This document shows, in pieces, positions 1-52,000 of a DNA stretch of 64,000 nucleotides. The translations under genes and the position numbers were made by a program. The stretch covers positions 1 to 64,000 of the IMG/VR virus record IMGVR_UViG_3300046804_001058, one strand, 5' to 3'. Under the pieces are notes generated by a model, which saw only the letters and a program-made list of their open reading frames with translations, had not been told where the DNA came from and ran no database searches. The DNA comes from a virus. Lineage: Duplodnaviria > Heunggongvirae > Uroviricota > Caudoviricetes. How positions within the stretch are numbered: position 1 is the stretch's first letter; each line of letters opens with the position of its first letter.

Positions 1-179
1 GATTTAGGGGGGGACCTAAGAATCACCACTTATCTAAACAGCTTATATAGTATGTACAAGTTTAGGGTTATAACTATATAGGTTATAAAAATAGTGCATA
101 ATATAGCATTCCTATTCTAGATAACTAAAATAGTTATTTGAGAATCAAAGGAATATACATACCTTTGCTTTAACTAATT

Positions 180-13294: not shown

Positions 13295-13855
13295 ATGACT
13301 TTAGATTTTCTAGTAATAAATACTTTTAATACCAAAACATTGGGGGTAGCTGATATATCAATCTATGATACAAATCCTCCTGTTGTGGTTGCTCCTACTA
13401 TGGAGATTACTATTCCTGGATATACTACTCCTGTGTCTCTTCCATTTATTCCTCAAGATTTTAATGTATACAACTCTGTTACACTAGGTTTAAATCCTTT
13501 AGGTGGAGGTTTTCAACCACTTCCTGACGGTGTTTATTACATGAAGTACTCTGTTGCTCCTGCATATCAAAATTTTGTAGAAAAGAACATAATGCGTACT
13601 GAAAGAATCCAAGAGAAGTTTGATAATGCATTTATGAAACTTGATATGATGGAATGTGATAGTGCAATTAGAACTCAAGCAAAAGTAGATTTAAACAGTA
13701 TCTACTACATGATCCAAGGATCAATTGCTGCTGCAAATAATTGTGCTATAGATACAGCTAATAAGTTGTATGCCCAGGCTGATAGACAGTTGAATAATTT
13801 TATTAAGAACAATTGTGGTTGTTCTGGAAACAATTATATAAATAACTTCTATTGA
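13295..13855 (+). CDS. hypothetical protein (start revised to ATG 13295)
   Basis: The track's ORF begins with GTG at 13250 inside the terminator loop. The first in-frame ATG (MTLDF...) at 13295 lies just after the terminator T-run and is the more plausible start. Confidence 0.4.
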   Translation: MTLDFLVINTFNTKTLGVADISIYDTNPPVVVAPTMEITIPGYTTPVSLPFIPQDFNVYNSVTLGLNPLGGGFQPLPDGVYYMKYSVAPAYQNFVEKNIMRTERIQEKFDNAFMKLDMMECDSAIRTQAKVDLNSIYYMIQGSIAAANNCAIDTANKLYAQADRQLNNFIKNNCGCSGNNYINNFY

Positions 13856-15347: not shown

Positions 15348-15367
15348 TATTATAAACCAAAATATAA

Positions 15368-31636: not shown

Positions 31637-31654
31637 ATCATACAATAGATTAAT

Positions 31655-34600: not shown

Positions 34601-34933
34601 AGACAAGCAACAGCTAAGTCTAAGACTAAAGAACAAGCTATTGAAGCTCTTGGTTCTATTGCTAGCAAGATTGCACAGAACAAGCTTGAGAACAGAAACT
34701 TGAATGTTATGGAGAACTTATATGGATACAGATTCAATGAGGCAGGTACTGTTTACAATGCAAACAATCCTTACTTCTTTAACAATCCTACGGTAGGTGC
34801 CAACTCATTAGGTAACATGTCTGAATATGAAAAAGCAAAGGCAATTACTAATGCTTATGAAAAGAAGTTTAAGAATGAAGGAAAGGAAGAAAAAAGAAAC
34901 GGTGCTATTGTAAAAGCTCTTAAAAACATCTAA
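31655..34933 (+). CDS. large Gly-rich virion protein (1092 aa); possible ejected or internal protein
   Basis: Long Gly/Ala/Gln-rich low-complexity tracts plus a globular middle region; no catalytic motif assigned with confidence. Confidence 0.4.
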   Translation: MKDQLLKIAKVKSEKEFYKKYPTEEAFMKAHGKAFKKAAMGKAMVAEQLDQLTDFSGEPKAQVGTMIGGGSSAPNAKPMAFNDLMAGASANNMGITKEQYQKQQDTQALAANAAPAKQDDGGFGNMLSEVATHFTEGDTGEYGYSLPMAQNGFDFTKLGNVIGTGFQKQGGLGSGLADMFGGKGTSKGIMDASQNMFKGKGLVGGLKTLGTSEGLGAAGKAAGLGVLNAAPQILQGIGQIKEQKAAIKKADQSAQISGLTAQAAESQPQLQKNRYVRPEDTLVQPGQLGNPQGGGTNYLAQNGTTVGGNKTEIQNSYNSPLDIYSNLGYTPLSNGDVKQYAYGGNLPTAEFGDYFQDSGQASIGKGVGSAIGSAFGPLGSTIGGFLGGVAGNLLGGADDANKLAGFQDTTKKNTERAAWAQGAQNIHSTYSSNMEDGGWVSNDWQPQVIATFGEHKLKDLLQPPHDADMLRAGGHLKEYTPPSAEAMYTGREQFAMGGDLKVHRGKAETMSYNPYLPEGGETVMFRGPSHDNGGMPISYGENGVEVEGGEPAVKLADGGSPDGNLVVFGNMMIPDYGVKEIGDDKAKGKKFKHYIADLSKVEAKQNRIIDKSIKTVNSIDSDNPFDQLAMNASRANLLGANMKLKDIAGKKQAAAMVQNAILDTANEFGVESDGLSKGQIKPIKDPLIGRDGKKLSKAQSGSIVDLLAKNNQKTDKSSRAALAESLGIVKKAKDYVGSAKQNSALYNAYSNFSKGGVNNNVTIPYAPAPASGVLDFLKKAPFLNPNNATNNNIVPYSPGYTGNSLPDVTVSAKRKTVDHPPSIEDMPGDIKGPKGKKGKGKFDWNTAALTLASGLGDYFRPHTKSTLDPNQLMGEMYALGSNQQEPVYAQTYQPMLDNPYDISLQDQVNAIDSQSRAAIRAAGNDPASQAYIMSQAADLKNKVLGEQMRINQANKAQVYQANRAAINDAVLKNIGILDTQQVRQATAKSKTKEQAIEALGSIASKIAQNKLENRNLNVMENLYGYRFNEAGTVYNANNPYFFNNPTVGANSLGNMSEYEKAKAITNAYEKKFKNEGKEEKRNGAIVKALKNI

Positions 34934-34944
34934 TCAATTCAGTT

Positions 34945-34992
34945 ATACCAAGTTAATCAAAACAGTTAAAACTCTTGGTATTTATAATAATT
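34945..34992 (+). terminator. hairpin (ATACCAAG/CTTGGTAT, 8-bp perfect stem) plus T/A-rich tail
   Basis: Stem at 34945-34952 and 34974-34981, 21-nt loop, then TTTATAATAATTT. Confidence 0.4.
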
Positions 34993-35019
34993 TAAATTAC
35001 ATTTGCTAATTCTTATATC

Positions 35020-37590
35020 ATGGCTTCATTTACAGACCAAATATCAAAATTTAATCCTTATATAGCACAATTGCCTACAGACGCAATGGTGAAAGTGGGC
35101 ATGTACAAACAGGCTCAGTATGACGCTGGTGTGCAAAAGATCCAGTCCTATATGGATAACATAGCTGGAATGGATGTATACAATGAAGGAGATAAAGCAT
35201 ACTTACAGTCTAAGCTTGATGGTCTAGGAGATAATCTTAAAATGGTTGCTGCTGGAGATTTCTCTAATCAGCAATTAGTTAACTCTGTAGGGGGTATGGC
35301 AACTCAAATTGTTAAAGACCCTAATGTCCAAAACGCTCTTGCTCAAACAGCACAGTTTAGAAAGATTCTATCTAGAATTGAAAAAGACCAAACTGATGGT
35401 AAAGCAGGTGCAAACAATATAGAAGATTTCTATGCACAAGCTAAACCTTGGATAGAGAGTAAAACACCTGGAGCAAAGCTACAAGCTAGCTATTCTCAAT
35501 ATAGAGATGTTAGTAAAGAAGCTTTGGAGATTATAAAGAACTTGCATCCTGAACTAAGATCTATTGATATTCCATTTTTAATACAAGATGGTAAGATTAA
35601 TAGTAAAGCTATTGGGGATGCAATGAAACGTAATAAAATTGAAGGTGTTACAGAAGGTCAGATTGAAACAGCCTTGAGAGCTGGGTTATCTGCAGAAGCT
35701 TATAACCAATTAGCTATTGATGGTAGATCTAAGTTTAGAGATGTGTCTGAAGATAAATTAAATTTTATCATCAACACTGACTTAGCTGAAACTAAAAAGA
35801 ATGATGCAATTGAGCTTGCCAACTTAAAAGAGCAATTAACCACTCAAGTACAAGATCCAGTGTTAACTTCACAACTTGAGAAGAGAATTAAGTATTACGA
35901 AACTAGATTAGGTGTTGATGGTCAACCTGGCACATTAGATGCACAAGCTAAAGCTAACTTAGAGATGGTTAGAACCAACCCAAATAAGGTGAAGGAAGCA
36001 TTGTATACACAAGGTTTCTTCCAACAGTTTGGTAATGGTTTCAAGTGGAGAAATGAAGACTATAGCTACCAAACAAATCCATTCAAGACTCAGGAAAACT
36101 GGATTAAAGAAATGGATCTTAAGTGGGCATCTGAAAATAGACAAAGAATTCAAGGAGAAAAAAGTCTTGCTTTACAAGAAAGAAAGGTGATAGTTGATGA
36201 AAAACAATTAGAACTTGATATGCAAGCTGCTTTTGGTACTCCAGGTATTCCTGTAGAAGAAGGTAATGCAACTGATAATACATTAAAGTCTCCTGAGAGA
36301 TTAGATGGTCACATGTCTAATGTTGCAAAGACTATCATAGGAGATAAGCAATCTTTGATGAACCAAGGTTTTACAGATGCTCAAGTTAATGGTATGGTTG
36401 CTGACTATGCTAAGAATGGTAATAAAGCTAATGTTCCTGCTACAGCAATTGGAACTATCCAAGACATCTTAAAGCAACAACAATATTTCAATGATTTAAA
36501 GAACTTAAAAGAGTCTACAAGAGCTGAAGCAACTGCTGAGGTTTTAAAAGATCATGGTCTTGCTGCTAAGAGAGCACAAGGAGAAGCTTATATACAAGCT
36601 AACTTTGATCCACGTAAGAGAGTATCCTCTAGAACATACGATGGTTTACCAATAGCTTTAGATGAGAAATCATTTATGGATGGTGTTAGAAATGGTACTA
36701 TTACATACAGTATTGATAAAGCTCCTCTTGGTGAATATAGATTAAATATTAATGGACGTCAAGTAGAATTTAAAAAGTCAGGATATGGATCAAATCCTGA
36801 GTTTGCAAAGTTGATTGAAAAAGCACATAGTTATTATACTAAGTATGGTAGTGTGGAAAAAGATATTGCAAAGAAAACAGATGATCTATTCAGACAAAAG
36901 CTAGGTTCTAGAGTTGCTGAATTAGTTCCAACAATTACAGGTATAGGTTTTGGTAAGGACCATATGGTACCAACAAACATTGCTAATAACTTAGTTGCAT
37001 TTATTGGAGCTGCTGATGCTAAAGAAATTGCTGCTGATGAGAACTACAGTACTGAAACAGCTGCAAAGAGACTTACAGGTGACAACTTAAAGAATACTAA
37101 AGTGTTACTTCGTCAAACTGCTGATGGATATCAAGCAATCATTAGAGACCTTACTGATATGAAAAATGATCAAGTGTTAAACATGACTCAAGATCAAGCT
37201 ATCAAAACATTTGGAGCTCAATATGTAAATACTAATAAACAAGATGCATTAAGAATTAGAGCTGGTAGAGGTAGTAATAATGTTAATGGAAAACCTCAAT
37301 CTGCACCTATGCAGACTCAGTTTGGTGACTTCCCTAATATCCATAGCTTCCAAGTAACAGCTCAGTTAGATGAAGATGCTAAGTACAAAGGACAATTTGT
37401 ACCAAAGATTCACTTAATGAAGAACGATGGTTCATATCAAACATTTGAAATCTCTGGAAAAAACAGATCTCAAAGACTTGGATATGATCAAGGTAAACAA
37501 CAATTAAGTAATTTAACAGATGACACACTATTAAAACTGTTAAAAGAGTCTTATCCTAAATATGATTTTTCTCAAATCTACAGAAAATAA
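35020..37590 (+). CDS. large virion protein (856 aa)
   Basis: ORF; no motif recognised. Confidence 0.4.
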   Translation: MASFTDQISKFNPYIAQLPTDAMVKVGMYKQAQYDAGVQKIQSYMDNIAGMDVYNEGDKAYLQSKLDGLGDNLKMVAAGDFSNQQLVNSVGGMATQIVKDPNVQNALAQTAQFRKILSRIEKDQTDGKAGANNIEDFYAQAKPWIESKTPGAKLQASYSQYRDVSKEALEIIKNLHPELRSIDIPFLIQDGKINSKAIGDAMKRNKIEGVTEGQIETALRAGLSAEAYNQLAIDGRSKFRDVSEDKLNFIINTDLAETKKNDAIELANLKEQLTTQVQDPVLTSQLEKRIKYYETRLGVDGQPGTLDAQAKANLEMVRTNPNKVKEALYTQGFFQQFGNGFKWRNEDYSYQTNPFKTQENWIKEMDLKWASENRQRIQGEKSLALQERKVIVDEKQLELDMQAAFGTPGIPVEEGNATDNTLKSPERLDGHMSNVAKTIIGDKQSLMNQGFTDAQVNGMVADYAKNGNKANVPATAIGTIQDILKQQQYFNDLKNLKESTRAEATAEVLKDHGLAAKRAQGEAYIQANFDPRKRVSSRTYDGLPIALDEKSFMDGVRNGTITYSIDKAPLGEYRLNINGRQVEFKKSGYGSNPEFAKLIEKAHSYYTKYGSVEKDIAKKTDDLFRQKLGSRVAELVPTITGIGFGKDHMVPTNIANNLVAFIGAADAKEIAADENYSTETAAKRLTGDNLKNTKVLLRQTADGYQAIIRDLTDMKNDQVLNMTQDQAIKTFGAQYVNTNKQDALRIRAGRGSNNVNGKPQSAPMQTQFGDFPNIHSFQVTAQLDEDAKYKGQFVPKIHLMKNDGSYQTFEISGKNRSQRLGYDQGKQQLSNLTDDTLLKLLKESYPKYDFSQIYRK

Positions 37591-37592
37591 CT

Positions 37593-40500
37593 ATGCCAGA
37601 TTTTGATCAAAACCTCAAACCTATTCTAAAGAACGAAAGTTCAACGCTTCCTAATTTGGATAACCCAGCTTCTACTGGAAGATTTGGGTATCAGCAAAGT
37701 TTGGGTAGTGGCCAAAGTGCTGTAGATAGTTTCTTTGGTAAAGGTCCTATTGTAAATGATATGGCTCCTACAGTTACTAGTCAGGAACTATATGACAATA
37801 GACGTTATGCTATATTCAGTCCTGACATTACAGATATTGAGAATCAAAAAGCTAATGCTCAATCTTGGGGAACTCAAGCTGCCAATGGTATCTTGAAAGG
37901 ATTAAACTTAGCTGCCACTACAACTATTGGTGGCTTTGGTATGTTAGAAGGTGCATTAGAAGCAACCTTCTCTGGAAGACTTGCTGACATTTGGGATAAC
38001 AGTATTTTAAGAGGATTAGATGATTGGAACAATAAAGTAGACCAAGAGTATCTACCTAACTATTATAGTACAAAAGAAACAACAGCTAACTGGTATTCTA
38101 CAGACAACTGGTTCAGACCAAACTTCTTATTTGATAAGTTGGTAAAGAACAGTGGGTATGCTGTAGGTGCAATGATTAGTGGTAATATTGCTAATGCTGG
38201 TATTTTAAAAGCAGGACGTGCTCTTGGTGCATTAGCTGATGCATATGCTGTAGGAGCTGAAGCTTCTCAGTCATTTAAAACTTTCACTCCTTTATTAAAG
38301 AATATGTCAAGAGCTTTCAGTGTTGGTAAAAACATTGAGGCTGCTGCTGTATTGGAGAAAGGTATTGCATCTGTTGCAGATATTGCTGCTCAGTCTTCTG
38401 AGTTAGCTGAGATTGCATCTCAAACAAATACATTATTTAAGATTAATGACATTGGTAGAAGAACAGCTATTGCTGCATATTCTTCTGCAGGTGAAGCATC
38501 TTTTGAAGCATTACAAACAAGTAGAGAATATAGAAAGAATGCAATTGCTCAGTATGTAGAAGCTAATGGTGTTGAGCCTACTGGTGAAGACTTAGATCAA
38601 ATTAACAAAGAAGCTGAGACTGTAGGTAAAACTTCATTCTTTGGTAACATGGCTATCTTGAGTGCTACAGAATATGTACAACTTCCTAAGATATTAGGAT
38701 CTTCTTATTCTGCTAGTAAGCAGGCTGCTAATAGCTTAATGGGACAAATTGATAATGTTGTATTAAGAGATGGTAAATATGTAGCTGAAGAAGCTGCAAC
38801 TAAGTTTGCTAAAATTTATGACAAAGCTAAAGGTGTAGCTAGATATGCATTTGATCCTAAAGAGGCATTGCAAGAAGGTTTACAAACTGGCTTACAAGTT
38901 GGTGTTCAGAACTACTATAACAAAGCATTCCAAACAAACAATGCTAATGTTTGGGTAGATGGATTCTTATATGGTTTAAATGGTACCAACAAAGAAGGTA
39001 AAGGTGTAGGTGTCTTGAATTCTAAAGAAGGTATGGAAAGCCTTTTACTTGGTGGTATCACTGGAGGAATGATGCAGATTCGTGGTAACATTGCTCAAAA
39101 CAGAGCTGTTGCTGAAAATACCCAAGCATTTGTTAATACACTTAATAGCACACCATCATTTAAACAAGCCTTCCAAGATAGAATGGATGGCATTAATAGA
39201 GGTGTAATGTTGCAACAGCAACAACAAGCCGCTATTCTTCAAGGTGATAGATTAGAAGCTAAAGATCTTGAAGCAGATTTATTACATAACTACTTAGCCC
39301 CACGTATCAAGTATGGTAGATTTGATATGATTTCTGATGACATCAAAGAGTTGAAAAGAGATGGCATGACAGAAGGTGGATTAAGTCAACTTAAAGAACA
39401 AGGACTTGCTAACATTAACGATACTGTTGAAACCTACTTACAAAGACTTAATAACTTTGAGAAGGTAGCTGGACAAGTAGAAGAGTTATACAAGTCTCTT
39501 GATTTAAGATACTCTGGTGAGATTGATGATAAAGGTAACAGAAAGTATTCCACTCAAGTACTTGATAAGATGGTATACGCTGGTGCTAAAATCATGAACT
39601 ATGATACACGTATCCCTCAAGTGAATGCTCCATTAGCAGAAGCTGGTATTGATACCACTACTATATTAACAGATATTATTACAAACAAGAAACCTAACAA
39701 AGAAGCAACAGAAGCTGCTATTGAGCAAATCAATAACATGGATGTAACTTCTGAAGTGAAGGATGACCTTAAGTTAGCATTAACTGATACTATTGAACTT
39801 TCTTTACGTAGAAAGTTATTCATTGATCAATATGATGATATTAAAGCTAACCCTGAAAAGTATCAGGTTAGAACACAATTGGCTGATGAAGAAGAAGCTC
39901 CAGTTGAAGTACAACAAGTTGAAGATGGTAAGACTAAGAAGAAAGAATTGACCGTAGGTCAAGAGTATTCTTTAGACCAATCTTATATCAGAGATGGTAA
40001 TGGTTTAGTATTAGCCCCTAAGATAACAGTTCAAGCACAAACTCTTGGTGGAGAGTATGAGGTGAAACTTCCTAACGGAAGAACTAGCTTCTTGACTCCT
40101 GAGCAATTTAAAGCTTATAAAGTTAGTGACGTAGATAATACATCTGATGAATTGGCTAACTTATTGGATAATGTAATTACTAGAGTTGTTAGTCAACCTA
40201 AGTATAAAGATGTAGCTGATACAATGCCTGCTGGAGAAGATGCTGAAAAAACATTATTACAACATATCAATGAGCAGGATAATCCTGAATTGATTGATGA
40301 AATTGAGGCAGCGTTTAAAACTGAGTCTGAAGCATTCATGAAGCAAGCTGAAAAGATTGCTAAAGACAATAAACTTGCTAAAGAGTTAAATGATACTTTA
40401 GATATAGGTAGTGAAGTGGGAGGTACAGAACAAGCTACTGCTCCTAGTGCAACTAAACCAACAGATGTTCTTCCTAGAGCAACTGTTGCATCTCAACAAA

Positions 40501-43500
40501 TCCCTGGATACAGAAACTCTAACTTCTTTGGAGTTAAGTTAAACAGCTTCCCTAACAGAAAGAACATCCGTGGTGTATATGTTACACAAGCTAATGAGGC
40601 TCAATTAGGTTTATCTGGATTAATGGTTTATTTAAAAGGTGACAGTGATGTAGATCCTGCTAAGACTATTGCATTTGTAATGGTGGAACAAATAGGGGAT
40701 AAACTAACTGTTATTGGTAAAGACGGTAAACCACTTGCTAAACCTACAGTAGAAGATGCTGTGTATCAAGTGATGCCTGATCCTAAGTTCAAGGTGAGTG
40801 AGAAGTATGGTGGAAAGAGTATGTTCAGAGAAGGTACTCCAGAAGAGGTAAAAGAAGATATTATTGCTAAGTATACAGCATGGGTTAACGAAACTCTATC
40901 TGAGACTAGCTTAATTCCTCATACGATAGAAGCTTCTTTTGGTAAAGCTGAAACTGTAGCTAACAGCAAAACTGCTGTAACAAGTGCTGATTTAATTAAG
41001 CCTTCTGATTTAAATACAAAGGCTGTATTATATGTTCCTACAACTGATGGTGCAATTACAAGAGGTTCTACTTCTTATACAAATCCATTAGGTAAGATAT
41101 TCTTAAAAGCTGCTAACGGTTATGTTATGTTACAGAACAACAAACATAGCGAGAAGCAGGCTGCTGTAATTTACGATGCAGTATTAGAACTTGCAAAGAT
41201 TGCAAACAGTGAATTTAATTTACAATCAGACAATGCTAAGAGATTAGTTAACTGGTTGAGAAGTACTGTATATTGGGGTAAACCTTACAATGCTCCTGGT
41301 GTAAATAGTGTGTGGTTTGAGAAAGGTAAGTTACACATGGGTAATGAAGGTAAAACATACACATTCACACAAGCTGGTATAGAAGCTGCTAGGACAGAAA
41401 TCATTGCTAACCTACAGAACATGTATCATAATGTTAGATCAGCATCTGTATCTAGTGAATTAAAAACTAACAGTGTTGAAAACTGGACATTGCCTTACGA
41501 ACAAATCCTTGGTGTAAAAGATGGTAAGATAGAATCTAAACAATGGAAGAACTATCAATCATACTTGTTATCTTCTGAAGGAAGAAACAGTGAAGATATT
41601 CCTTTGACTACTAACATCAAAGCTGTATCTAATGAAGATGAAGTTAACAGACAAGGTGTATACTTTGTAGCTACAGATATGGCTGACAGATATGCTACTC
41701 CTCTTCCAAAGGTAAAAGCTCCTAAAACATTAACTCCAGGTTCTCCTAAAGCTGATGTTGCTAATGCTATTGAAGATGGTAAGTTAACTACAATCAGTAA
41801 TCCTACTTTTGGTACAGTTCACTTTATCCCTAACTTCAATAATTTAGATGAGATTGAATTTGTTACAACTGACCCAACTAATCCAGAGTCTATTAAGATG
41901 GCTGCAGATAACGCTGCTGCTTTTGCTAAAGTGGAAGCTGGTAAGATTGCTGCATCTATTGCTCAGAAGATTAGAAACGAGCAAGCTGCAGTTAAAGAGG
42001 AGGCTAAGGCTGTAGCTCCTATTATTGAAGAGAACAAGATCTCTGAGAGTGATGAGGAGTTGATGAGAAGACAAATGAATGAAACTGAGGACGATGCTCC
42101 TTTCCGTACTAAATTACAAAATCAAGAAGAATCATTTGAAAAAGAGAACTGGCCTAAAGTAGAGAAGTTCTTAAAAGATAAATTCCCTAATCTTCCTGTA
42201 TATAGAGTTAAGAACATCATTAGAAATGCTGCTGGACAAGAGATGTTTGGTATGTTCAAAGATGGTGCTATCTATGTATATGAAGGTGCAGAAACTGGTA
42301 CGGTATATCATGAGGTGTTCCATGGTGTTTACAGAATGTTTACAAGCCCAGAGGAACGCAATAGCATCAGAGATGAATTTAGATCTAGAGCAGGAAGCTT
42401 TACAGATAGAGCTACTGGTCAGGAGCTTAAATACTCTGATGCTACAGATATACAAATAGAGGAACAATTAGCTGAAGAGTTAATTGACTACATTCAAAAT
42501 GGTAAGCTACCAGCTAAACCAAAAGATGGTAGACCGTTTATTGTTAAGATGTTTGCTGACTTTGTAAACTTTGTTAAGTCATTGTTCACAGGTAAGAAGG
42601 CTGCATTAACTACAAATGAATTATTCAAGCAAATTAAGAAAGGAGATTTCAAACAATACTCTCCTATTACATCTAGTTTGTCTTATGCTAGCAAAGGTAT
42701 TATAGATATTGACTCAGCTATTGCTGGGCCAGGTGCTGTTGCACGTCTAAAAATGTCTGGACAAACTGTTCATGACATTATGCAACAAATGACTTATATC
42801 ACATTGGGTGATATAGTTAAGAGTGATGAAGGTTTATTCAATATTGAGAAGATTAAGAAATCAGCTCTATATGAAAAACTTAAAGACAACTTGCAAAAGA
42901 CAGCTCTTAAATCTAGAAAGAGTGCTGAGCAATTAGTTAGAGATGGTAAGTTCACACAAGAACAAGCTAATCCTATCATTGAGAAGTCTGTTGCTTTGTG
43001 GAAAGATATCACTGAAAACTGGGATGATATTGTAGCAAAACATGAGGAATACCTTAAGGCTTACTCTATTCAGTTTGATGAGAATGAAGAAACAGCATTT
43101 GCTGATCAAGACAGATCAAAAGGTTCTGACTATATAGATAGTAGCAAGATTGATAGCTTTAAGAAAGCTGCTGCTGCTACTAAGATTTTATTATCCACTA
43201 TACCTATTGTAAGAGATGGTAAGTTGGATTACTCATCTATTAACGGTGTAAGATTATTACCTGTTAGTGAGGTGTACATGACTTTGTTAAACAAAACTCA
43301 CAATGCACGTAATGTTGATGAGATGATTAGCAGAATCTATGACATAGCTAAGAATGACGAAAACTATCGTACGTTGTATGAGCGTATCACTAAGAGTAAG
43401 TTTGCTGATAACAACTTTGACTTCTCTACTATTAAGAATACACATGAGGAAAGATTAATCTCTGCATTGTGGAAATTACTTAAGAAACAGAATCCAGAAG

Positions 43501-46500
43501 TTAAGAACTTGTTTATATTAGAGAATGGCGAGGCTCAAGTTGGAGACTCTAACTTTGGTACAGCAACTAGACAATTAAGTGCAACGTATACAAGTGCCAT
43601 TATTAATAGCATCAAAACAACTCCTAAGTACTTTACATTTGATAAGAAAGAGAATGCTTTTGTTCCTGTAAGAGATGTTAATGGTGTAGCTGCTATTGAA
43701 GATGTAGATATCAACACTCCAGAAACTCAAAGAAGATTCTTAGGTTCATTAGGTATTAGCTTCACTAAAGATGATTACGAGAACTTAGATGGAGATGATA
43801 AAACAAGATTCCAAGATGCTGTTAAAGGTATTAAGAAGAGTTTTGTAGATGCTAAACGAATCACTACCTTCTCTGGTAAGACATTGTCTATCAAAGGTAG
43901 ATTGATGACACTAGCTGAGTTGAAAGTTAAACTTGCAAACCCAGAGTTTGATAGTACATTCTACAATGTGAATGGTGAGATGACTCAAACGTTCCTTGGT
44001 ACAAATGCTGCTAGTAACTTATTTGATACACTTTCTCAGGTTTCTAATAAGAAAGAGTTAGCAAACACTCCGTATGCATACTTGCTTACAGACTCCTTTG
44101 CTCAGAACTCTACTATATTAAACATGATGTTTGATGTAGAAACTGGTGATAGAATTCAAGGCTCTGAGGAGTTAATGAAAACATCATGGGCTGATGGTAC
44201 ACAAAATGCTACAAATGGTAAGAAGAAATCTTCTGCTAAATTAACATATAAAGAGCGTTTGATCCAAGAGATCAATATGAACTTAGCTGGTTATTATTAT
44301 ACATTAGTTCCAGGTGATGCTTCATTAGAATGGCAAACTTATATGAAGAATGCTATTACTGCTGATCAATTACTTTCTGGGAACGATGCTATATTTGATA
44401 TCTTTAAAGGTTATTTCACATCTGAAATGAACCTAGCTAGAGAGAATCGTCCTACAAAGAATAGCAAAGATTTACGTTTCTTCAAACCTATCTTAGGAGA
44501 CAGCTTACACAATAAGTTGATTGAATTAGAAGGAGCTCCTGAAGTTATCTATGAAAATAATAAAGAGGTTATTGATAAGGCTGTATTAGCATTTATCAAT
44601 AAGAAGACTGAAGGATTCAAAACTAACCTTGAAAAGTATGGTGTAATCACTCCTGGAATGGGACGTCAGACCTGGGAAGTAACAAACTTACAGTTTGCTC
44701 AAGGAGGAACTATATCAGAACAAAACTTAAATAGAGAGTTAACAGCATTGTCAGTTAACTTTATGGTTAACAACATTGAGTTACATAAGTTATTGTTCTC
44801 TGATCCATATCAATATTCTGATGAGTTAAAGCGTATCAAGAACTTCTTATCTCCACGTCAGGCTATTATTTCTAACTCAGCTAATATGAATGATGTATTA
44901 GATAGAGTTTGGAACGCAGGTTATGAAAGAGGAGATATTGGTTACACTGATATGAATCAAGACTTCTTCAGAACTATCACTATGTCTGACGTACTTAGCA
45001 CAAACAAACTTGCTGATTACAGTACTGAGCCTTATGAAGAATCAGATGGTTCTGGTATCATCATGTTTAAATCATACCGTAACTTCAGAATCCGTGCTAA
45101 TGATTGGACAGATGAGAATGAAGAGCAGTACAAATATGATATAGCTTGGGAGAAGAGATTCAAAGGATTGCCTATGTCTGAAGCAGAGAAGACAATCTTG
45201 AAAGGACTTAACCCTAATGTAAAGAGTACATATACATCTATCAAGCCTATTGTTTCTGGTAATAAAGGAAATGGTCAGTCTTACAATGATGTTGTACTAG
45301 ATAAATTTGCATTGTATCCATTATCATTCCGTATTCTACAAGAGATTAATCAGGCTGGTAATAGAGATAACTCTAATGCTGTAGAGCATTATAATAAGAT
45401 GCAAGCTGAGAATATTGACTACAGTGTATTTAAGTCTGGTAGAAAGGTTGGTGCACAAACTCAACATAAGTTGTACAATGAGGATGGATCATTTAATGAT
45501 GCTTCTTATGATGCAACAGGTATAGTTAATATTCCATTTGGCATCATATCTGTACAATCAGAAGTTCCATCTAAAGATGTAGAACTTGTAACTAGAGGTT
45601 CTCAAATCACTAAGTTAGCTACTATGGACTTTATGGAAGCTGGTGTACCTATTGACTTTGAGAAAGGTGGTAATATTAATACTAGATATGAAAAGTGGTT
45701 TAAGTTAACAGAAGATCAAAAGTTAGCTAAATCTAAATTATATAAAGAGATTAAAAATAACCAAGCATTGCTAGGAGCAATGATGGAAGAAGGTTATCAA
45801 AATCTACTTAAACAAATGGGTATTGTTGAAAATGCTGATAATACATTTAGCATTGACAATACAGCTAAGGTGGGAGAAATCTTACGTAAGGAGATTCTTA
45901 AGAGAGAAGTTAATGACAACATTGCTGACGCATTAGCTGGATTCTTGGAAGGTCACACTACTATAGAAGCTACTCCTGCGTATCAGCAAATCAGAAGCAT
46001 TCTTTACTCTATTGCTGATAGAGAGGTTATTAGCCCTAAGATTTCTGGTGGTATGAAGGTACAAATCCCTTCTACATTATTAGAAGAAGTTAGAGGTAAA
46101 GCAACTGATGTTAACGGTAAACAAGCTTACGAGTCTGATGTATTAGATTTTTATACAGATAAGGACGGTAAGCGTGTGTGTGAAATCATGTTAGGTAGAT
46201 GGTTCTATAGTCCAATGAGTGACAAGGACCTACTTGACTACTTGAATAATACAGAAGAAGGTCAAAAGATCTTATCTGGTGTTGGTTTCCGTATCCCTAC
46301 TCAAAAGCAAAACTCTATTGATAGCTTTGTAATCAAACAATTCTTACCTGAAGAGTTTGGAGATAACGTGGTTATTCCTTCAGCATTAGTTAAGAAGGCA
46401 GGTTCTGACTTTGATATTGATAAGTTGTCTGTATACTTAAAGAACGTATATGAAGATGCTGATGGTAATGTGAGACTTGTTCCTTACGTAGGTATGGGAG

Positions 46501-49025
46501 AAGAAGGTAAAGCTAAGTTTAATGAGCAACTAAACCTTAAAGGTGGATATAAAATGTCTCTTGAGAATGCTTATATCCAATCTCTACAAAACTTAATATC
46601 TAGTTCTGAGAACTTTAAAGCGTTAGTTAAGCCTAACTCTGCAGATCAATTAAAAGGATTAGCTAAAGAGATTACTAAGAAATTAGGAATGCAGTCACTT
46701 GACTCTTCTTCTTTAGACAACATGTTGGATAGAGAGTACATGTCTAGATTAAGACAAGCGTTTGTATCTGGTAAGTACGCAATTGGTATTGCTGCTAGAA
46801 ACCAAACAAACCACTCATTAAACCAACGTCAACTTGTATATGTTGACCCAGCTAAAATCACAAAAGAAGATGAAGTTTGGTTAAAAGATGGGGCTATTAC
46901 ATTTGAAGAATACAATAAAATTAATGTAGGTGGCAGAGATTATGCTACTATCTCCATGGTTAATAATGCTGAAAGAAGTGAAGAGTTCCCAGAAGGACAA
47001 GCTATATCTGATATCAACGCTCAGTTTATTGATGGTTATGTTGATATCTCTAAGGGTCCATGGATCATGGAATTAGGTGCTACACCAAATGTAACTTCTA
47101 CATGGATGTTCTTATCAAGCATTGGTGTACCTATTGATACAGTTGCCTACTTTATGAACCAACCAATCATTCGTGATTACTTGGCTAAGGTTGAGAACTC
47201 AGGATACAGTTGGTTATTCATTGATGACTTTGTGAAAGAAATAAAAGCTCTTAATAAATATAGCGTAGGAAGAAACTATGATTTCTCTAAAATCAAAACT
47301 ATTCCTAGCAAAACACAATTACGTAAAACTGTAGGAGCTATTGGTAGAGATTTAAACAGAGACCAGAAAGCAGAGCAACAATTCATGTTAGATGAATTCT
47401 TGAAGTATGCTAAGATGGCTAGTCAAATGTTTACATTCTCTCAAGGTACAAACTTTGATACAGCTACATTCAATGATCCATACTTAGTGTTCAAGAAGAT
47501 GGAGCAATTGAAGAAAGCTCAGAATACAATCTTCTCATCTTTGGACGAAGAAGGTAAAGTTATCTCTGGTGTAGATAGCGTATTGAAGAACTCTTTCTTA
47601 GGTAAATTAGCTGAGAAGATTGGTAATATTAGAAATGCTTATGCAAAAGTTCTTAAGTCTGATGCTCCTAATGTAAGAAATGTAATTGAGAACGTATTAA
47701 GAGATTACGTAGATATGCCTGATTCTGATTTCATCAGAGTGAGTCAAAAGGCTGTGTCTGATTTATTTGACTGGGCTGTACAGATTGATAAGAAATATAA
47801 CAATCAAATCACCAACTTATTATTGTCTAAAGACAATGCTGCAGGTGAATTATCTAAGTTTATCACAGAAGTTAAGAACACACCTAATCATCCTTTACGT
47901 AACAATCAGATAATCAAGTTGTTAGATCCAATTATTAATGGTGCTGAAAAAGGTGTTAACAATGCTAAGATCAACAATAAGAGCAACAAGGTATTTGATC
48001 AGAATCAAATCATCTATGGGTTTAATGAATTGAAACGATACTTAGAAGACAATGGTAGTACATTATATGATAAGCTTGTAAGACTTGCTGTGTTACAATC
48101 TGGATTGTCTAACTCTCCAATATCATTTACTTCGTTATTGCCATATGAAGATTTCAAAGAAATCTACAACAAGACTTTGTCTAATTTAGAAAATATGCCT
48201 AACTTAGCGGACTTCAATACATTGAAGGTATTCCAAAGAAATAACTGGAATGATTCAGATATTGTCCCATCAAGAAAGGCTAAAAGGATTACTACAGCAA
48301 GTGGAGATGTATATTACCAAAACAATGCAAACTTCACTGGTAATAAAGCTGCTACAGAAGCTATTGCTGCTGGAGAGATTCCAAGATTGCTTAAGATGTC
48401 CTCTTTATCTAGAGAAGCTCAAGCTGATGTTGTGGTTTATTCTTGGGAACAAGTACCTCAGGGTAAGAAGAAATATGACATGATTAAGGAAGGTGACTTC
48501 TCATATATCAAGAAAGGTTTATTCCAAAAGGTATATGACGGTACAACTCCTCTATCATTCTTAAATAAATATGGCACTCCAACATATGTCTATAAAATGA
48601 TTAATGCTTGGGGAGATTCTAGAAGAGTTGGTGAAAATTATTTCAGTGCAAATGAATTTTATGCGTTTGCTCAGAAGTCAGTAATTGACAATGGTTTCTT
48701 AGAAGCAAATGAAGTGGAGGATGATGCAATCACACAATACTTCTCAGCTGAACCGTCTGCAATTGTTAGCACATCACCAAAGATTCAAGATGAATTGATT
48801 GATGAAGATGCTACGTTAATTGAAGATGATGCAGAACAATTAGGTCAGGCATTAGAAGAGACAATCAAGGAAAGTGCTAATATGGAAATTCCTTCTGGAA
48901 AGGTTAAATTGAAAGATGGTAACTATCATGAATTGACTGCTATAGATGGTAAGTATCTTAGCGAACTAGGATACTCACAAAGAGATATAAATAAAATTTT
49001 ACAAACAATCTGTAAACTAGGATAA
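37593..49025 (+). CDS. giant protein (3810 aa); candidate virion-packaged multidomain protein with zincin-like HEXXH and DxDxD motifs (possible virion RNA polymerase)
   Basis: Uninterrupted 11.4-kb ORF. 'VYHEVFHGVYRMF...PEE' at aa 1573-1577 (nt 42309-42323) and 'GSDFDIDKLSVY' at aa 2939-2943 (nt 46407-46421). Confidence 0.5.
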   Translation: MPDFDQNLKPILKNESSTLPNLDNPASTGRFGYQQSLGSGQSAVDSFFGKGPIVNDMAPTVTSQELYDNRRYAIFSPDITDIENQKANAQSWGTQAANGILKGLNLAATTTIGGFGMLEGALEATFSGRLADIWDNSILRGLDDWNNKVDQEYLPNYYSTKETTANWYSTDNWFRPNFLFDKLVKNSGYAVGAMISGNIANAGILKAGRALGALADAYAVGAEASQSFKTFTPLLKNMSRAFSVGKNIEAAAVLEKGIASVADIAAQSSELAEIASQTNTLFKINDIGRRTAIAAYSSAGEASFEALQTSREYRKNAIAQYVEANGVEPTGEDLDQINKEAETVGKTSFFGNMAILSATEYVQLPKILGSSYSASKQAANSLMGQIDNVVLRDGKYVAEEAATKFAKIYDKAKGVARYAFDPKEALQEGLQTGLQVGVQNYYNKAFQTNNANVWVDGFLYGLNGTNKEGKGVGVLNSKEGMESLLLGGITGGMMQIRGNIAQNRAVAENTQAFVNTLNSTPSFKQAFQDRMDGINRGVMLQQQQQAAILQGDRLEAKDLEADLLHNYLAPRIKYGRFDMISDDIKELKRDGMTEGGLSQLKEQGLANINDTVETYLQRLNNFEKVAGQVEELYKSLDLRYSGEIDDKGNRKYSTQVLDKMVYAGAKIMNYDTRIPQVNAPLAEAGIDTTTILTDIITNKKPNKEATEAAIEQINNMDVTSEVKDDLKLALTDTIELSLRRKLFIDQYDDIKANPEKYQVRTQLADEEEAPVEVQQVEDGKTKKKELTVGQEYSLDQSYIRDGNGLVLAPKITVQAQTLGGEYEVKLPNGRTSFLTPEQFKAYKVSDVDNTSDELANLLDNVITRVVSQPKYKDVADTMPAGEDAEKTLLQHINEQDNPELIDEIEAAFKTESEAFMKQAEKIAKDNKLAKELNDTLDIGSEVGGTEQATAPSATKPTDVLPRATVASQQIPGYRNSNFFGVKLNSFPNRKNIRGVYVTQANEAQLGLSGLMVYLKGDSDVDPAKTIAFVMVEQIGDKLTVIGKDGKPLAKPTVEDAVYQVMPDPKFKVSEKYGGKSMFREGTPEEVKEDIIAKYTAWVNETLSETSLIPHTIEASFGKAETVANSKTAVTSADLIKPSDLNTKAVLYVPTTDGAITRGSTSYTNPLGKIFLKAANGYVMLQNNKHSEKQAAVIYDAVLELAKIANSEFNLQSDNAKRLVNWLRSTVYWGKPYNAPGVNSVWFEKGKLHMGNEGKTYTFTQAGIEAARTEIIANLQNMYHNVRSASVSSELKTNSVENWTLPYEQILGVKDGKIESKQWKNYQSYLLSSEGRNSEDIPLTTNIKAVSNEDEVNRQGVYFVATDMADRYATPLPKVKAPKTLTPGSPKADVANAIEDGKLTTISNPTFGTVHFIPNFNNLDEIEFVTTDPTNPESIKMAADNAAAFAKVEAGKIAASIAQKIRNEQAAVKEEAKAVAPIIEENKISESDEELMRRQMNETEDDAPFRTKLQNQEESFEKENWPKVEKFLKDKFPNLPVYRVKNIIRNAAGQEMFGMFKDGAIYVYEGAETGTVYHEVFHGVYRMFTSPEERNSIRDEFRSRAGSFTDRATGQELKYSDATDIQIEEQLAEELIDYIQNGKLPAKPKDGRPFIVKMFADFVNFVKSLFTGKKAALTTNELFKQIKKGDFKQYSPITSSLSYASKGIIDIDSAIAGPGAVARLKMSGQTVHDIMQQMTYITLGDIVKSDEGLFNIEKIKKSALYEKLKDNLQKTALKSRKSAEQLVRDGKFTQEQANPIIEKSVALWKDITENWDDIVAKHEEYLKAYSIQFDENEETAFADQDRSKGSDYIDSSKIDSFKKAAAATKILLSTIPIVRDGKLDYSSINGVRLLPVSEVYMTLLNKTHNARNVDEMISRIYDIAKNDENYRTLYERITKSKFADNNFDFSTIKNTHEERLISALWKLLKKQNPEVKNLFILENGEAQVGDSNFGTATRQLSATYTSAIINSIKTTPKYFTFDKKENAFVPVRDVNGVAAIEDVDINTPETQRRFLGSLGISFTKDDYENLDGDDKTRFQDAVKGIKKSFVDAKRITTFSGKTLSIKGRLMTLAELKVKLANPEFDSTFYNVNGEMTQTFLGTNAASNLFDTLSQVSNKKELANTPYAYLLTDSFAQNSTILNMMFDVETGDRIQGSEELMKTSWADGTQNATNGKKKSSAKLTYKERLIQEINMNLAGYYYTLVPGDASLEWQTYMKNAITADQLLSGNDAIFDIFKGYFTSEMNLARENRPTKNSKDLRFFKPILGDSLHNKLIELEGAPEVIYENNKEVIDKAVLAFINKKTEGFKTNLEKYGVITPGMGRQTWEVTNLQFAQGGTISEQNLNRELTALSVNFMVNNIELHKLLFSDPYQYSDELKRIKNFLSPRQAIISNSANMNDVLDRVWNAGYERGDIGYTDMNQDFFRTITMSDVLSTNKLADYSTEPYEESDGSGIIMFKSYRNFRIRANDWTDENEEQYKYDIAWEKRFKGLPMSEAEKTILKGLNPNVKSTYTSIKPIVSGNKGNGQSYNDVVLDKFALYPLSFRILQEINQAGNRDNSNAVEHYNKMQAENIDYSVFKSGRKVGAQTQHKLYNEDGSFNDASYDATGIVNIPFGIISVQSEVPSKDVELVTRGSQITKLATMDFMEAGVPIDFEKGGNINTRYEKWFKLTEDQKLAKSKLYKEIKNNQALLGAMMEEGYQNLLKQMGIVENADNTFSIDNTAKVGEILRKEILKREVNDNIADALAGFLEGHTTIEATPAYQQIRSILYSIADREVISPKISGGMKVQIPSTLLEEVRGKATDVNGKQAYESDVLDFYTDKDGKRVCEIMLGRWFYSPMSDKDLLDYLNNTEEGQKILSGVGFRIPTQKQNSIDSFVIKQFLPEEFGDNVVIPSALVKKAGSDFDIDKLSVYLKNVYEDADGNVRLVPYVGMGEEGKAKFNEQLNLKGGYKMSLENAYIQSLQNLISSSENFKALVKPNSADQLKGLAKEITKKLGMQSLDSSSLDNMLDREYMSRLRQAFVSGKYAIGIAARNQTNHSLNQRQLVYVDPAKITKEDEVWLKDGAITFEEYNKINVGGRDYATISMVNNAERSEEFPEGQAISDINAQFIDGYVDISKGPWIMELGATPNVTSTWMFLSSIGVPIDTVAYFMNQPIIRDYLAKVENSGYSWLFIDDFVKEIKALNKYSVGRNYDFSKIKTIPSKTQLRKTVGAIGRDLNRDQKAEQQFMLDEFLKYAKMASQMFTFSQGTNFDTATFNDPYLVFKKMEQLKKAQNTIFSSLDEEGKVISGVDSVLKNSFLGKLAEKIGNIRNAYAKVLKSDAPNVRNVIENVLRDYVDMPDSDFIRVSQKAVSDLFDWAVQIDKKYNNQITNLLLSKDNAAGELSKFITEVKNTPNHPLRNNQIIKLLDPIINGAEKGVNNAKINNKSNKVFDQNQIIYGFNELKRYLEDNGSTLYDKLVRLAVLQSGLSNSPISFTSLLPYEDFKEIYNKTLSNLENMPNLADFNTLKVFQRNNWNDSDIVPSRKAKRITTASGDVYYQNNANFTGNKAATEAIAAGEIPRLLKMSSLSREAQADVVVYSWEQVPQGKKKYDMIKEGDFSYIKKGLFQKVYDGTTPLSFLNKYGTPTYVYKMINAWGDSRRVGENYFSANEFYAFAQKSVIDNGFLEANEVEDDAITQYFSAEPSAIVSTSPKIQDELIDEDATLIEDDAEQLGQALEETIKESANMEIPSGKVKLKDGNYHELTAIDGKYLSELGYSQRDINKILQTICKLG

Positions 49026-49026
49026 T

Positions 49027-52000
49027 ATGGCAAGTTGCCCAAATACAAGTCTTGATTCTTGGAAGAAATTAGTAGAAGATAAAGGAGAGGATGCAGCATA
49101 CTACCTTTGGGATAAGTATGATGGAAACATTCCTGTAGACGCTACTGAAGAGCAATTGGCTGTAAAAGACAAATTGTTTCAAACTAAGAATGAGGTTAAG
49201 AAGGTTACTCTTGATAGTAAGGAAACAGATCCATTGTTGTTAGACTCTGAAGAAGCTAATAATGGATATCAAGTTCAAGATGAAACTGGTAAATGGACAC
49301 CTGTTCTTAAGAGGGTTACTAACAGAGTAAAAGCTTGGTATAAAGAAAAGTTTGGTACAAAGGTATTCAGTCCTCAAGAGCAAGCTTTTAATAATCTAAA
49401 GAGAGACTATGGTATTGCTGGTCATAATGATTTCCAAGAAATCCATGAAAGATATTACTATCCAGATGGAACTAAGAGAGATGTGCCTTTAGCTAGACCT
49501 ACAGAAATCAACTTGCCTTCAATGGATATGTATGACAAGTTGGAGAAGTATTATGTTGATCTTATCAATTCATTCCCAGAAGGAACTAACATCTATTCTG
49601 AGGTGGTGATTTATGATAAGAAAAATAAAGAGGCTGGTACAATTGACTTCTTGGCTGTTGAGCCTTCTGGTAAGGCAAACATCCTAGACTGGAAGTTTAT
49701 GTACATCAACGGTAATGATGTTGCTTGGTTTAAGCAAGGAGCTTTTAATATTCAGATTGGTACATACAAAGAGATGTTACGTACTAACTATGGTATCAAA
49801 GAGTTTGGAATGTTACGTGCTATCCCTATTGCTATGGACTTCCAACTTAAGAACAAACAAGATCCTAAGTTAGGCTATGACCTAAAAGGTATTGCAATTG
49901 GTTCTGTAGATAAAAGCCAGATTGATCCTGTTACAGACTTAAAACTTATCCCTGTATCTGAAGAAACAGAGTCCACTGGATTTGCTGCTTTAGATAAGGT
50001 GTTAAATAATCTGAATGCGTTATACCGTCAGTATAGTAAAGAACAAGTTACTAATGAGGAAGAGCGTCAATTCAAGATAGAAAGACTTAATCAGTTGAAG
50101 AAAGCTGTACGTATTGTACAGGGAACCAACAACTTACAACCTTTAATTGATGTAATTGAGGTTATGAGAAAGGATGGTGATAGAATCATGAATGACTATG
50201 AAGCTATCTACAAAGATAGACCTGCGTCTTCTGATGATTCTACTGATGCTGACTTATCTGACTTTGCTGCAGATATGAACAACTACATCAGATTCTCTGA
50301 GGTGTTCTCTACAATTAGTGATGATATTGGTGACCTAATCTGGAATGCAGAGATGGAATCTGCTGCTACATCTGAAGCAGAGAAAGAGAACATCAAAGCT
50401 AGAAAGGAAATCTTATTTAACTTAGAGAATGAATCTAAGTTAATTAGAAAATCAATTAAGAGTATTACAGAAGCTTCTGAGAAGTTTGCTGATAAACATA
50501 TTGGTGAAAGAAATTTGGTTACAGGTTTGACTAAAGCAGAGGCAGTCGTTAAAGGGCTTGCCTCTAACTTTAGAGGTATTTCTGAATTACCGTTACGTGC
50601 CCTACAAGTGTTATACAAGCTAACTAGAAATGCACAAGGTAAAGCATCTCAAGAATCTCTATCTGAGGTGGAAGAACTTATGGCTATTAGAAAGAAGTTA
50701 GCTGATAGAGGTGGTGATTTAAGAAAGCTTGTGCAGAAGATTTACCAAAAGGATGACTCAGGTAAGTTAGTTAACAAGCTTGTAAAAAAATTCAACTCAG
50801 ACTTCTATGAGCAAGTTGATGAGAAAGCTGCAGCTGGTGGAGATAGAGCTTGGTTAAATGAAAACATTGATGTAGAAGCTTACAAGAAAGAAGCTGAAGC
50901 AATATTAGAAAGACAACTTAGAAACATTGAAAGAAACTCATACGCTGGTAGTGATGAAGAAGTTGAGGATCAAAAACGTAGATATTCTGAAGAAGCTAAA
51001 CGTCTATGGGATATTGATCATAAAGATTTCAATGGTTGGAATAACTACGTAATCAAAAGACATCCATTAGATAAATGGTATTCTAAAGAATATGAGGAGA
51101 TTCAAGCTGATCCAGAATTACTTGAGCTTTATAACTACATTGGTAAAGTGAATGAGAAGGCTAAAGACTTAGGATACATCAACAACATGGTATCTAAGAA
51201 CTTCTTACCATTCATTAGAAAGAGTATGGCTGAGCAGTTAGTTTGGGATAACAAGCTATCTGTAATGAGCAACTTCTACAATAGCTTACAGATTAGAACT
51301 GATGATGCAGGTTATGGTCAGATCAATGAAGTGACTGGTGAATTAGAGAATAGCATTCCTAAATACTACACTACAGACTTTACTAAACAAGAAGATGGTA
51401 CAAATGACTACTCTGATGTGAGTGAAGACTTATTTAAGAACATGATCTTATACGTTCAGCAAGTGAACAAGTATAAGTACATGTCTGAGATTGAAGAGCA
51501 ACTTAAGTTAGTTAAGACTATTGAATCATTTAAGAAACATCTTAACACTAACCGTGTAGGTAATGTTGTTAGAAAAGGTGGTAAGGTAGAAGAACTTCCT
51601 GGTAATGAGGAGAATACAAAGATGTATGATCAGTTCTTACGTGCATTATTATATGAACAAAAGTATGTAATCAACGACTCTGATGTACCTTTGAATATTG
51701 ATAAGGTGTTAAACTTTGTTAAGAAAGGAATTAATAGAGTTGCTGGTAAAGAAGTGTATAAAGAAACTGACTCTACTACTGCTACATCTTTAGTTAAAAC
51801 TATAGACGCTGCTAATAGAGCATTTCAACTAAAAGCTCTTGGATTTGAATTCATCTCTGGTGCTGCCAACATGTTTGGTGGTAATATTCAGATTGCTACA
51901 CAGGCTGGAAACTATTTCAAGGCTAGAGAGTTTTTGAAAAATGAAACAAAACTAATTGGACAGAAGTTTGAAAGCAATGAGGAAAAGGAAATGTTTGTAC

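Follow-up and report, generated by a model that had tools for sequence, protein, structure and literature searches.

A giant open reading frame in the late region of a crAss-like phage

We analysed 64,000 nucleotides of a caudoviricete genome (positions 1 to 64,000 of IMG/VR record IMGVR_UViG_3300046804_001058; hereafter the window) and focus here on a single giant open reading frame (ORF) that encodes a protein of 3,810 residues. The ORF starts 2 nt past the stop of an 856-residue ORF, a 1,416-residue ORF starts 1 nt past its own stop, and no other ORF of at least 150 residues overlaps 37593..49025 on either strand. At the base composition of the window each codon has a probability of 0.077 of being a stop, and 3,810 stop-free codons would arise by chance with a probability of about 8e-134. 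A first-pass annotation, made by a model from the sequence alone, had noted an HEVFH motif (here placed at residues 1573–1577) and a DFDID motif (residues 2939–2943) in this ORF and had listed neighbouring ORFs of 899, 1,092, 856 and 1,416 residues; all of these are present. The only other DxDxD sequence in the ORF, DSDVD at residue 1017, is not kept in homologues.

When the protein is scanned for conservation by BLASTP against 116 giant homologues, residues ~100–3700 are covered colinearly, conservation peaks at residues 2901–2950 and the C-terminal tail is variable. Colinear conservation of this extent indicates a genuine gene, as opposed to an artefact of assembly or reading. Its main divisions are as follows.

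37593..49025, + strand: whole giant ORF, 3,810 residues, ATG start; predicted PhiCrAss001 gp47-like cargo protein fused to a PhiCrAss001 gp50/phi14:2 gp66-like virion RNA polymerase
37740..40142, + strand: module A, residues ~50–850; conserved, with Gly/Ala-rich amphipathic segments
40143..40442, + strand: poorly conserved linker, residues 851–950; coincides with a gene boundary in one relative (L004)
40440..41642, + strand: module B, residues ~950–1350; kept only among environmental giant homologues, with no known relative
41643..42092, + strand: acidic, poorly conserved linker, residues 1351–1500
42129..42905, + strand: HExx[H/E] metal-site module (module C), residues ~1513–1771; homologous to the C-terminal part of PhiCrAss001 gp47
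42990..48692, + strand: RNA polymerase part, residues ~1800–3700; kept in all giant homologues

The C-terminal part is a predicted two-barrel RNA polymerase

Profile comparison and structural modelling identify the C-terminal ~2,000 residues as a predicted single-chain two-barrel RNA polymerase (RNAP) of the family that contains Cellulophaga phage phi14:2 gp66 and PhiCrAss001 gp50. The phi14:2 enzyme (PDB 6VR4; GenBank tag gp077, 2,180 residues) has been characterised biochemically and structurally, and both it and its two neighbouring proteins are present in the phi14:2 virion; catalysis depends on 1361-DFDID-1365, where replacing any one of the three aspartates by alanine abolishes activity (bioRxiv 10.1101/2020.03.07.982082). 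In a BLASTP comparison, residues 2374–2951 of the window protein align with gp66 851–1373 (E 9e-15), with GSDFDIDK identical and GFRIPTQ opposite GYRIPNQ. A megablast comparison of the whole ORF with phages yielded nothing useful, but a tblastn search of phage genomes matched ~135 crAss-like records, several of them annotated 'putative RNA polymerase'. A family profile built from residues 2401–3560 and 40 metagenomic homologues (41 members) matches PDB 6vr4_A over gp66 560–1672 (E 8.6e-40), and the family hidden Markov model (HMM) maps residues 2201–3198 residue by residue onto gp66 616–1659 (889 residue pairs). The principal elements of the polymerase are listed below, and all of them have counterparts in gp66, which is the best match to the window protein by both profile and fold.

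45444..45452, + strand: KVG of the first barrel, residues 2618–2620; gp66 counterpart DGVKVGA
45540..46058, + strand: connector between the barrels, residues 2650–2822; equivalent to gp66 1095–1238
46290..46304, + strand: RIPTQ of the second barrel, residues 2900–2904, with R and P invariant; gp66 has YRIPNQ
46407..46421, + strand: DFDID, Mg-binding Asp triad (predicted catalytic), residues 2939–2943; equivalent to gp66 1361-DFDID-1365
46728..46853, + strand: bridge-helix equivalent, residues ~3046–3087; mapped from gp66 1529–1559
47001..47117, + strand: trigger-loop equivalent, residues 3137–3175; mapped from gp66 1598–1636

The first-pass annotation had read DFDID as the DxDxD signature of two-barrel RNAPs, and had named beforehand several checks of that reading, among them the fold predicted around the motif, the conservation of its aspartates, and a profile comparison with gp66-like RNAPs. 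The two outcomes that it had named as refuting, a missing double-psi beta-barrel and unconserved aspartates, were both looked for and neither was seen; the profile match to 6VR4 and the octapeptide shared with gp66 also agree with the reading. Positions G2937, D2939, F2940, D2941, I2942, D2943 and K2944, together with R2900-I-P-T2903 and K2618-V-G, are invariant in the 41-member alignment, and D2939, D2941, D2943, K2944, R2900, P2902 and K2618 are also invariant in 113–114 giant homologues (114/114 for K2618); the three aspartates, F2940 and K2944 are kept in 41/41 and 113/113 homologues. An AlphaFold2 model of residues 2401–3560 (pLDDT 85.7, pTM 0.85) predicts a two-barrel fold of the double-psi beta-barrel type around DFDID. 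When this model is compared with the PDB by Foldseek, 6VR4 ranks first (E 2.6e-30, TMq 0.65), followed by Neurospora QDE-1 (E 2e-5), Arabidopsis RDR2 and then the beta' subunits of cellular polymerases; this order of matches follows the pattern published for gp66 (bioRxiv 10.1101/2020.03.07.982082). QDE-1 and the plant RDR2 are, like the window protein, single-chain two-barrel polymerases with a connector, but they have no detectable sequence similarity to it, act in RNA silencing and carry no cargo modules.

Two groups of giant virion RNAPs, from crAss-like and from N4-like phages, had been invoked as precedents for such a motif. The crAss-like precedent is apt, but N4-like virion RNAPs (vRNAPs) are T7-type single-subunit enzymes that lack the two-barrel DxDxD, and therefore only the crAss comparison holds. 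Coliphage N4 gp50 (Schitoviridae) resembles the window protein in being a giant polymerase (~3,500 residues) with an HExxH accessory domain; the N4 enzyme is packaged in the capsid, ejected and transcribes early genes, as the window enzyme would by analogy. It differs in its T7-type core without DFDxD and in the placement of the HExxH domain, which is C-terminal to the polymerase in N4 but N-terminal to it in the window protein. Searches of the window protein for a T7-type core gave no Pfam match and no PDB match to the N4 mini-vRNAP, the core being of the two-barrel type instead.

The N-terminal part resembles a PhiCrAss001 cargo protein

The window protein has ~1,790 N-terminal residues, comprising module A, module B and the HExx[H/E] module, that gp66 lacks. 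By sequence comparison these residues correspond to PhiCrAss001 gp47, an 'RNAP-associated' virion cargo protein. In tblastn searches, residues 1–1300 matched the N terminus of the PhiCrAss001-type 'RNA-polymerase subunit' gp47 and also structural proteins of the non-crAss Cellulophaga phages phi4:1 and phi17:2 and of a Leptolyngbya phage, and the C-terminal part of gp47 was matched by residues 1548–1606, which include HEVFH. Profile HMMs of the giant homologues gave the same result for module A (residues 1–880; E 8.7e-61 against gp47) and for the HExx[H/E] module (residues 1500–1800; E 1.5e-20), and neither HMM found a match among the ORFs of phi14:2 or N4. The ORF thus represents a gp47-like protein fused to a gp50/gp66-like polymerase.

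PhiCrAss001 gp47 has module A at its N terminus and the HExxH module near its C terminus (GTTYHEAFH...EENMAE), separated by ~1,250 residues compared with ~650 in the window protein, and PhiCrAss001 gp50 contains an RNAP core with DFDVD. These two proteins are products of separate genes on opposite strands, whereas the window encodes the gp47-like and then the gp50-like part in one ORF. Mass spectrometry detected gp47, gp49 and gp50 in PhiCrAss001 virions, where they were assigned to the capsid cargo zone, and ejection of the cargo proteins has been proposed to require partial unfolding (PMC10172136).

We also considered a fusion of the 1,797-residue and 2,180-residue proteins of phi14:2. The similarity to the 1,797-residue protein is weak and N-terminal (E 0.013–0.037), and none of the module HMMs matched it. 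In terms of PhiCrAss001, a gp47-like plus gp50-like fusion describes the ORF better than a joining of these two phi14:2 proteins does.

The fusion is widespread and occasionally split

Fusion of the polymerase and its two neighbours into one huge polyprotein has been reported for some phages (Drobysheva et al., bioRxiv 10.1101/2020.03.07.982082), and giant RNAP genes encoding up to ~6,000 residues have been described as a hallmark of the group (PMC10136315). The single-chain fusion of a gp47-like protein to an RNAP is thus already described, and the suggestion in the first-pass annotation that an uninterrupted 11.4-kb ORF is exceptional does not hold for crAss-like phages. The single-chain fusion is the predominant architecture in a large environmental clade. 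An exhaustive HMMER search with residues 1–900 returned 859 cluster representatives, 264 of them at E 1e-30 or better; among the best 150 of the 859, the median length is 4,139 residues and 116 proteins fall between 3,500 and 5,544 residues. Both YHExx[HE] and SDFDxD are present in 103 of these 116 giants, ~1,360–1,390 residues apart.

The annotated Crassvirales genome cr118_1 has a 4,946-residue ORF with HEAFH at 1734 and DFDID at 3209, and cr56_1 has one of 4,461 residues (L007 3127-16512) with HEAWH at 1987 and DFDID at 3517. These fused ORFs of the Suoliviridae and more than 100 metagenomic giants share the module order of the window protein, with the HExxH-type motif ~1,360–1,530 residues upstream of DFDID. 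The window protein is among the shorter members. The cr56_1 ORF contains 38 in-frame stops under code 11, which indicates stop-codon recoding, whereas the window ORF has no in-frame stops.

In some close relatives the chain is broken into overlapping or abutting ORFs. One (L003) has two ORFs with a seamless frame switch (9899-9914) at a position equivalent to residues ~1971–1976 of the window protein, and another (L004) has four ORFs, split at the equivalents of residues ~847/900, 1244/1247 and 2978/2990 (L004 8328-8395, 10001 and 15304-15598). The region just past DFDID (residues 2978–2990) is a recurrent hot spot for splits and insertions among relatives. The breaks in L003 and L004 may reflect programmed frameshifting, genuine fission of the gene or errors of assembly. 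In cr108_1 (L006), two annotated RNAP coding sequences (2,967 and 798 residues), neither with DFDxD, are separated by a 291-nt unannotated gap (13533-13824) at the expected place of the motif.

Several relatives carry additional domains. A NADAR/DUF1768 domain (PF08719) lies inside six homologues (P0011, P0017, P0048, P0074, P0076 and P0086), a histidine-phosphatase domain (PF00300, His_Phos_1) lies inside another (P0045), and the gene adjoining the split RNAP genes of L004 (18675-20216) encodes an ART-PolyVal ADP-ribosyltransferase domain (PF18760). These domains may be effector add-ons that are delivered with the polymerase.

An atypical, probably metal-binding HExx[H/E] module

The HExx[H/E] module, part of the gp47-like region, contains two conserved motifs.

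42309..42323, + strand: HEVFH, residues 1573–1577
42459..42479, + strand: EEQLAEE, conserved acidic helix, residues 1623–1629; candidate third metal ligand

Across eight diverse sequences, G1553, Y1572, H1573, E1574, H1577, E1623, E1624, A1627 and E1628 are invariant. In a larger set of 148 module instances (drawn from the window protein and homologues P0108-P0111 and P0120-P0269), H1573 and E1574 remain invariant. At position 1577, 109 of 146 informative sequences have Glu and the other 37 have His, giving HExxE in ~75%. The acidic residues most strongly conserved downstream of HExx[H/E] are those at +51 (E1624, in 142/144 instances) and +55/+56 (positions 1628 and 1629, either E or D). Less strictly kept are E1588 (+15; 120/148) and E1595 (+22; 131 E and 10 D). 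All of these positions are candidates for a third metal ligand.

The first-pass annotation had likened this region to a gluzincin metallopeptidase site. The HEVFH sequence is indeed there, and the glutamates noted 12–20 residues downstream correspond to E1588, but the likeness does not extend to a peptidase profile or fold, or to the relatives, most of which have HExxE. Profile searches of Pfam, PHROGs and the PDB gave no peptidase match for the module, and no match to a zincin fold was obtained, so that a zincin assignment draws no support from profile or fold. Nor does the module correspond to the 'zincin' of phi14:2 gp65, which lies in the 1,421-residue protein encoded downstream of gp66 and has HEIMH at residue 245: BLASTP detects no similarity between the two, the module HMM does not match gp65, and hhalign gives a probability of 1.5%, and we therefore reject this identity. 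Because HExxE is the majority state and the module has no detectable relation to the zincin-like domain of gp65, its membership of the zincins is unproven, and a protease is only one of the activities that it might have. The restriction of position 1577 to His or Glu is atypical for zincins and suggests a different set of ligands or a non-protease metal site. The module is most likely a metal-dependent accessory domain, which may act in polyprotein processing, in polymerase activation, or in packaging or ejection.

A probable remote link to the virion polymerase of N4

According to a structural study from 2026, a conserved HExxH is also present in the C1 subdomain (residues 2124–2375) of the N4 virion polymerase, and the C-terminal domain (CTD) of that enzyme, which includes C1, packs against the RNAP (PMC13434306). 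The N4 C1 sequence 'GWTNFDDKTIYLVSPSMETLIHELVHA ... ALNEFMAWGL ... LVQMVKDVYQAIKKLIWGRK' aligns with 'GMFKDGAIYVYEGAETGTVYHEVFHG ... LAEELIDYIQ ... IVKMFADFVNFVKSLFTGKK' of the window module. We compared an alignment of 148 crAss-type modules with one of ten N4-like C1 sequences (L008, which is N4 gp50 residues 2124–2375, and L009-L017) using hhalign, and obtained a probability of 88.2% (P 3.3e-7, score 38.5) over 295 columns. The score falls to 6.4 in a reversed control and never exceeds 6.0 in 60 column shuffles; a block-shuffle control is uninformative because the blocks retain the shared motifs. HMMs of modules A, B and D found no match among the N4 ORFs.

A possible bridge comes from Leptolyngbya phage Lbo-JY46 (L018, PP438436, 15833-28739), a cyanophage in which a 1,552-residue protein has module A (E 1.8e-49). 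The product of the next gene, 2,748 residues long, combines a GNAT acetyltransferase domain with two HExxH modules; it lacks DFDxD and does not match the RNAP profile. The second of these modules connects to both families, with an hhalign probability of 88.5% for the crAss-type family and 78.5% for N4 C1. Lbo-JY46 looks like a case of the same carrier modules with a different payload.

These comparisons suggest that the crAss-type HExx[H/E] module is probably, although this is not proven, a remote homologue of the C1 subdomain of N4-like vRNAPs. They bear on what the module does. It could be a non-protease, metal-binding carrier or docking domain that holds or regulates the polymerase, serves encapsidation or ejection, or both, a reading that we consider credible without going so far as to call it probable. 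The contrast between the hhalign score and its controls, the intermediate position of the second Lbo-JY46 module and the packing of the N4 CTD against the RNAP all favour it, and a single ligand position that takes either His or Glu would suit a structural metal site. On the other side, the similarity is remote, with a marginal pairwise BLASTP match between the window module and N4 C1 (E 0.029), and the conserved acidic residues E1624 and E1628 have no acidic residues aligned with them in N4.

A broader and more speculative extension, which we offer tentatively, is that the [YF]HExx[H/E]...ExxA[E/D] module is a metal-binding 'carrier' domain, ancient and mobile, that giant ejected proteins of unrelated podovirus lineages have in common, in which the packaging and ejection scaffold would be conserved and the polymerase or effector would be an exchangeable payload. 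Candidates are the crAss-type two-barrel vRNAPs, the N4-type T7-like vRNAPs with C1, and the 2,748-residue protein of Lbo-JY46; module A is likewise found in non-crAss phages.

Alternatively, the chain could be a true polyprotein in which the HExxH module acts as a zincin-type metalloprotease, cleaves the poorly conserved linkers in maturation or after ejection, and so releases gp47-like and gp66-like proteins, removes an inhibitory segment, or does both. Self-processing of the fused proteins and a role for a zincin in RNAP activation have been proposed (bioRxiv 10.1101/2020.03.07.982082), relatives carry the modules as separate genes (the split ORFs of L004; PhiCrAss001 gp47 and gp50), low-conservation linkers are present at residues 851–950 and 1351–1500, and the invariance of H1573 and E1574 and the conservation of downstream acidic residues are as an active site would have them. 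We nevertheless think this unlikely: the second zinc-ligand His is replaced by Glu in the 109 of 146 sequences noted above, which is not a zincin signature, no cleavage-site motif was identified, and the module aligns with N4 C1, for which no protease activity has been reported.

Genomic context

The genes of the window (~35% G+C) mark it as the late, structural half of the genome of a divergent crAss-like phage, and all of the large ones are on one strand. Genes that identify the region and those that flank the giant ORF are listed here.

4072-6654: P22-like portal protein (Pfam)
8634-10187: Crassvirus major capsid protein, Crass_capsid (Pfam)
22574-23542: tail ring protein 1, CrAss_Ring_1 (Pfam)
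23548..28041, + strand: homologue of the Crassvirus muzzle protein (PF25731, crAss_MUZ); ties the block to a tail and cargo module of the crAss type
28937..37590, + strand: ORFs of 899, 1,092 and 856 residues, past the muzzle gene and ahead of the giant ORF; their position alone makes them candidates for cargo or ejection proteins
49027..53277, + strand: downstream 1,416-residue ORF, in the position of phi14:2 gp65 (1,421 residues) and PhiCrAss001 gp49; no HExxH

The muzzle gene is followed by ORFs of 288, 899, 1,092 and 856 residues, the giant ORF and the 1,416-residue ORF. This order parallels that of phi14:2, where proteins of 593, 420, 593, 1,797, 2,180 and 1,421 residues are all annotated as virion proteins on the basis of proteomics, and where the gp66 gene likewise stands within a block of genes for giant virion proteins. 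The earlier suggestion that the giant ORF and its neighbours form a block of proteins injected with the DNA fits this synteny past the muzzle gene, and it also agrees with what proteomics has shown for the virions of phi14:2 and PhiCrAss001. The 1,416-residue protein itself has a weak, C-terminal match to phi14:2 gp65 (E 1e-4) and no significant similarity to PhiCrAss001 gp49 (E 0.76).

In a tblastn search of 50,697 phage records, the sole match to the capsid protein (8634-10187) is in the cyanophage Lbo-JY46 (25.9% identity, E 4e-31), which places the window phage in a deep-branching lineage outside the classified families of the Crassvirales. Within the 1,092-residue ORF (31655-34933), residues 696–748 have a weak PHROG match to L-alanyl-D-glutamate peptidase (E 6e-4), and this stretch may belong to an ejected protein that cuts the cell wall.

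Three fibre proteins with collagen repeats are encoded at 15368-17128, 53418-55562 and 55588-58254. The last has a clear S74 intramolecular chaperone domain (E 5.2e-14), the first has a weak S74 match below the Pfam cut-off (E 8e-4), and the second has none. Directly past the tail-fibre genes is a 411-residue homologue of tryptophan halogenase (58259-59494; PF04820, E 5.6e-95; phrog_2928), an unusual enzyme for a phage structural region. A 427-residue ORF (18004-19287) has a sub-threshold match to Sortilin-Vps10, a BNR-type propeller (E 2e-7), and may encode a tail protein that binds a receptor or glycan. A search of the window for tRNA genes found none.

A probable virion-packaged polymerase in a single chain

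We conclude that a divergent environmental crAss-like phage very probably makes its virion-packaged DNA-dependent RNAP from the giant ORF, as a single chain of 3,810 residues. Judging from phi14:2 and PhiCrAss001, the protein would be expressed late and stored in the cargo zone of the capsid. At infection it would be pushed, partly unfolded, through the portal, the tail barrel and the muzzle, and would refold in the cytoplasm to transcribe early phage genes independently of the host polymerase. Mg-dependent, DNA-templated RNA synthesis has been demonstrated for gp66 (bioRxiv 10.1101/2020.03.07.982082).

Several observations weigh against this conclusion. Identity to gp66 is ~21–23%, sequence comparison has shown no gp66 counterpart for residues ~1800–2200 or for the last ~500 residues, and single-sequence searches with the whole ORF found no match in Pfam, PHROGs or the PDB (phmmer). 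Packaging, ejection and activity are known from the orthologues and are predicted here by homology with them, and the divergence of the capsid protein makes the transfer of biology from crassviruses of Bacteroidota an extrapolation.

Alternatively, the polymerase might not be part of the virion, or the ORF might encode a tail or internal structural protein with a decayed polymerase relic. Such a reading would be in keeping with this reliance on orthologues and with the place of the gene in a late structural operon, but we consider it very improbable, given that the catalytic-site residues are all invariant across more than 110 relatives and form the most conserved block of the protein, that the phi14:2 and PhiCrAss001 orthologues are virion components and gp66 is active, and that late expression with the structural genes is what a packaged enzyme needs.

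As a member of the crAss-type vRNAP family, the polymerase is a divergent addition to what is already known and teaches nothing new about the enzyme. Less expected are the HExxE majority state of the accessory module and its probable link to N4 C1. These raise two testable points about the so-called zincin domain, namely that its second His is usually Glu and that it appears to be related to the HExxH domain of the N4 virion polymerase, an enzyme with no other relation to the window protein. The ORF flags the window as part of a deep-branching, environmental crAss-like lineage, and the fusion that it exemplifies prevails in a large clade, which at 50% identity comprises hundreds of clusters. 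The relation to N4 C1, if true, bears on how giant polymerases are packed and ejected.

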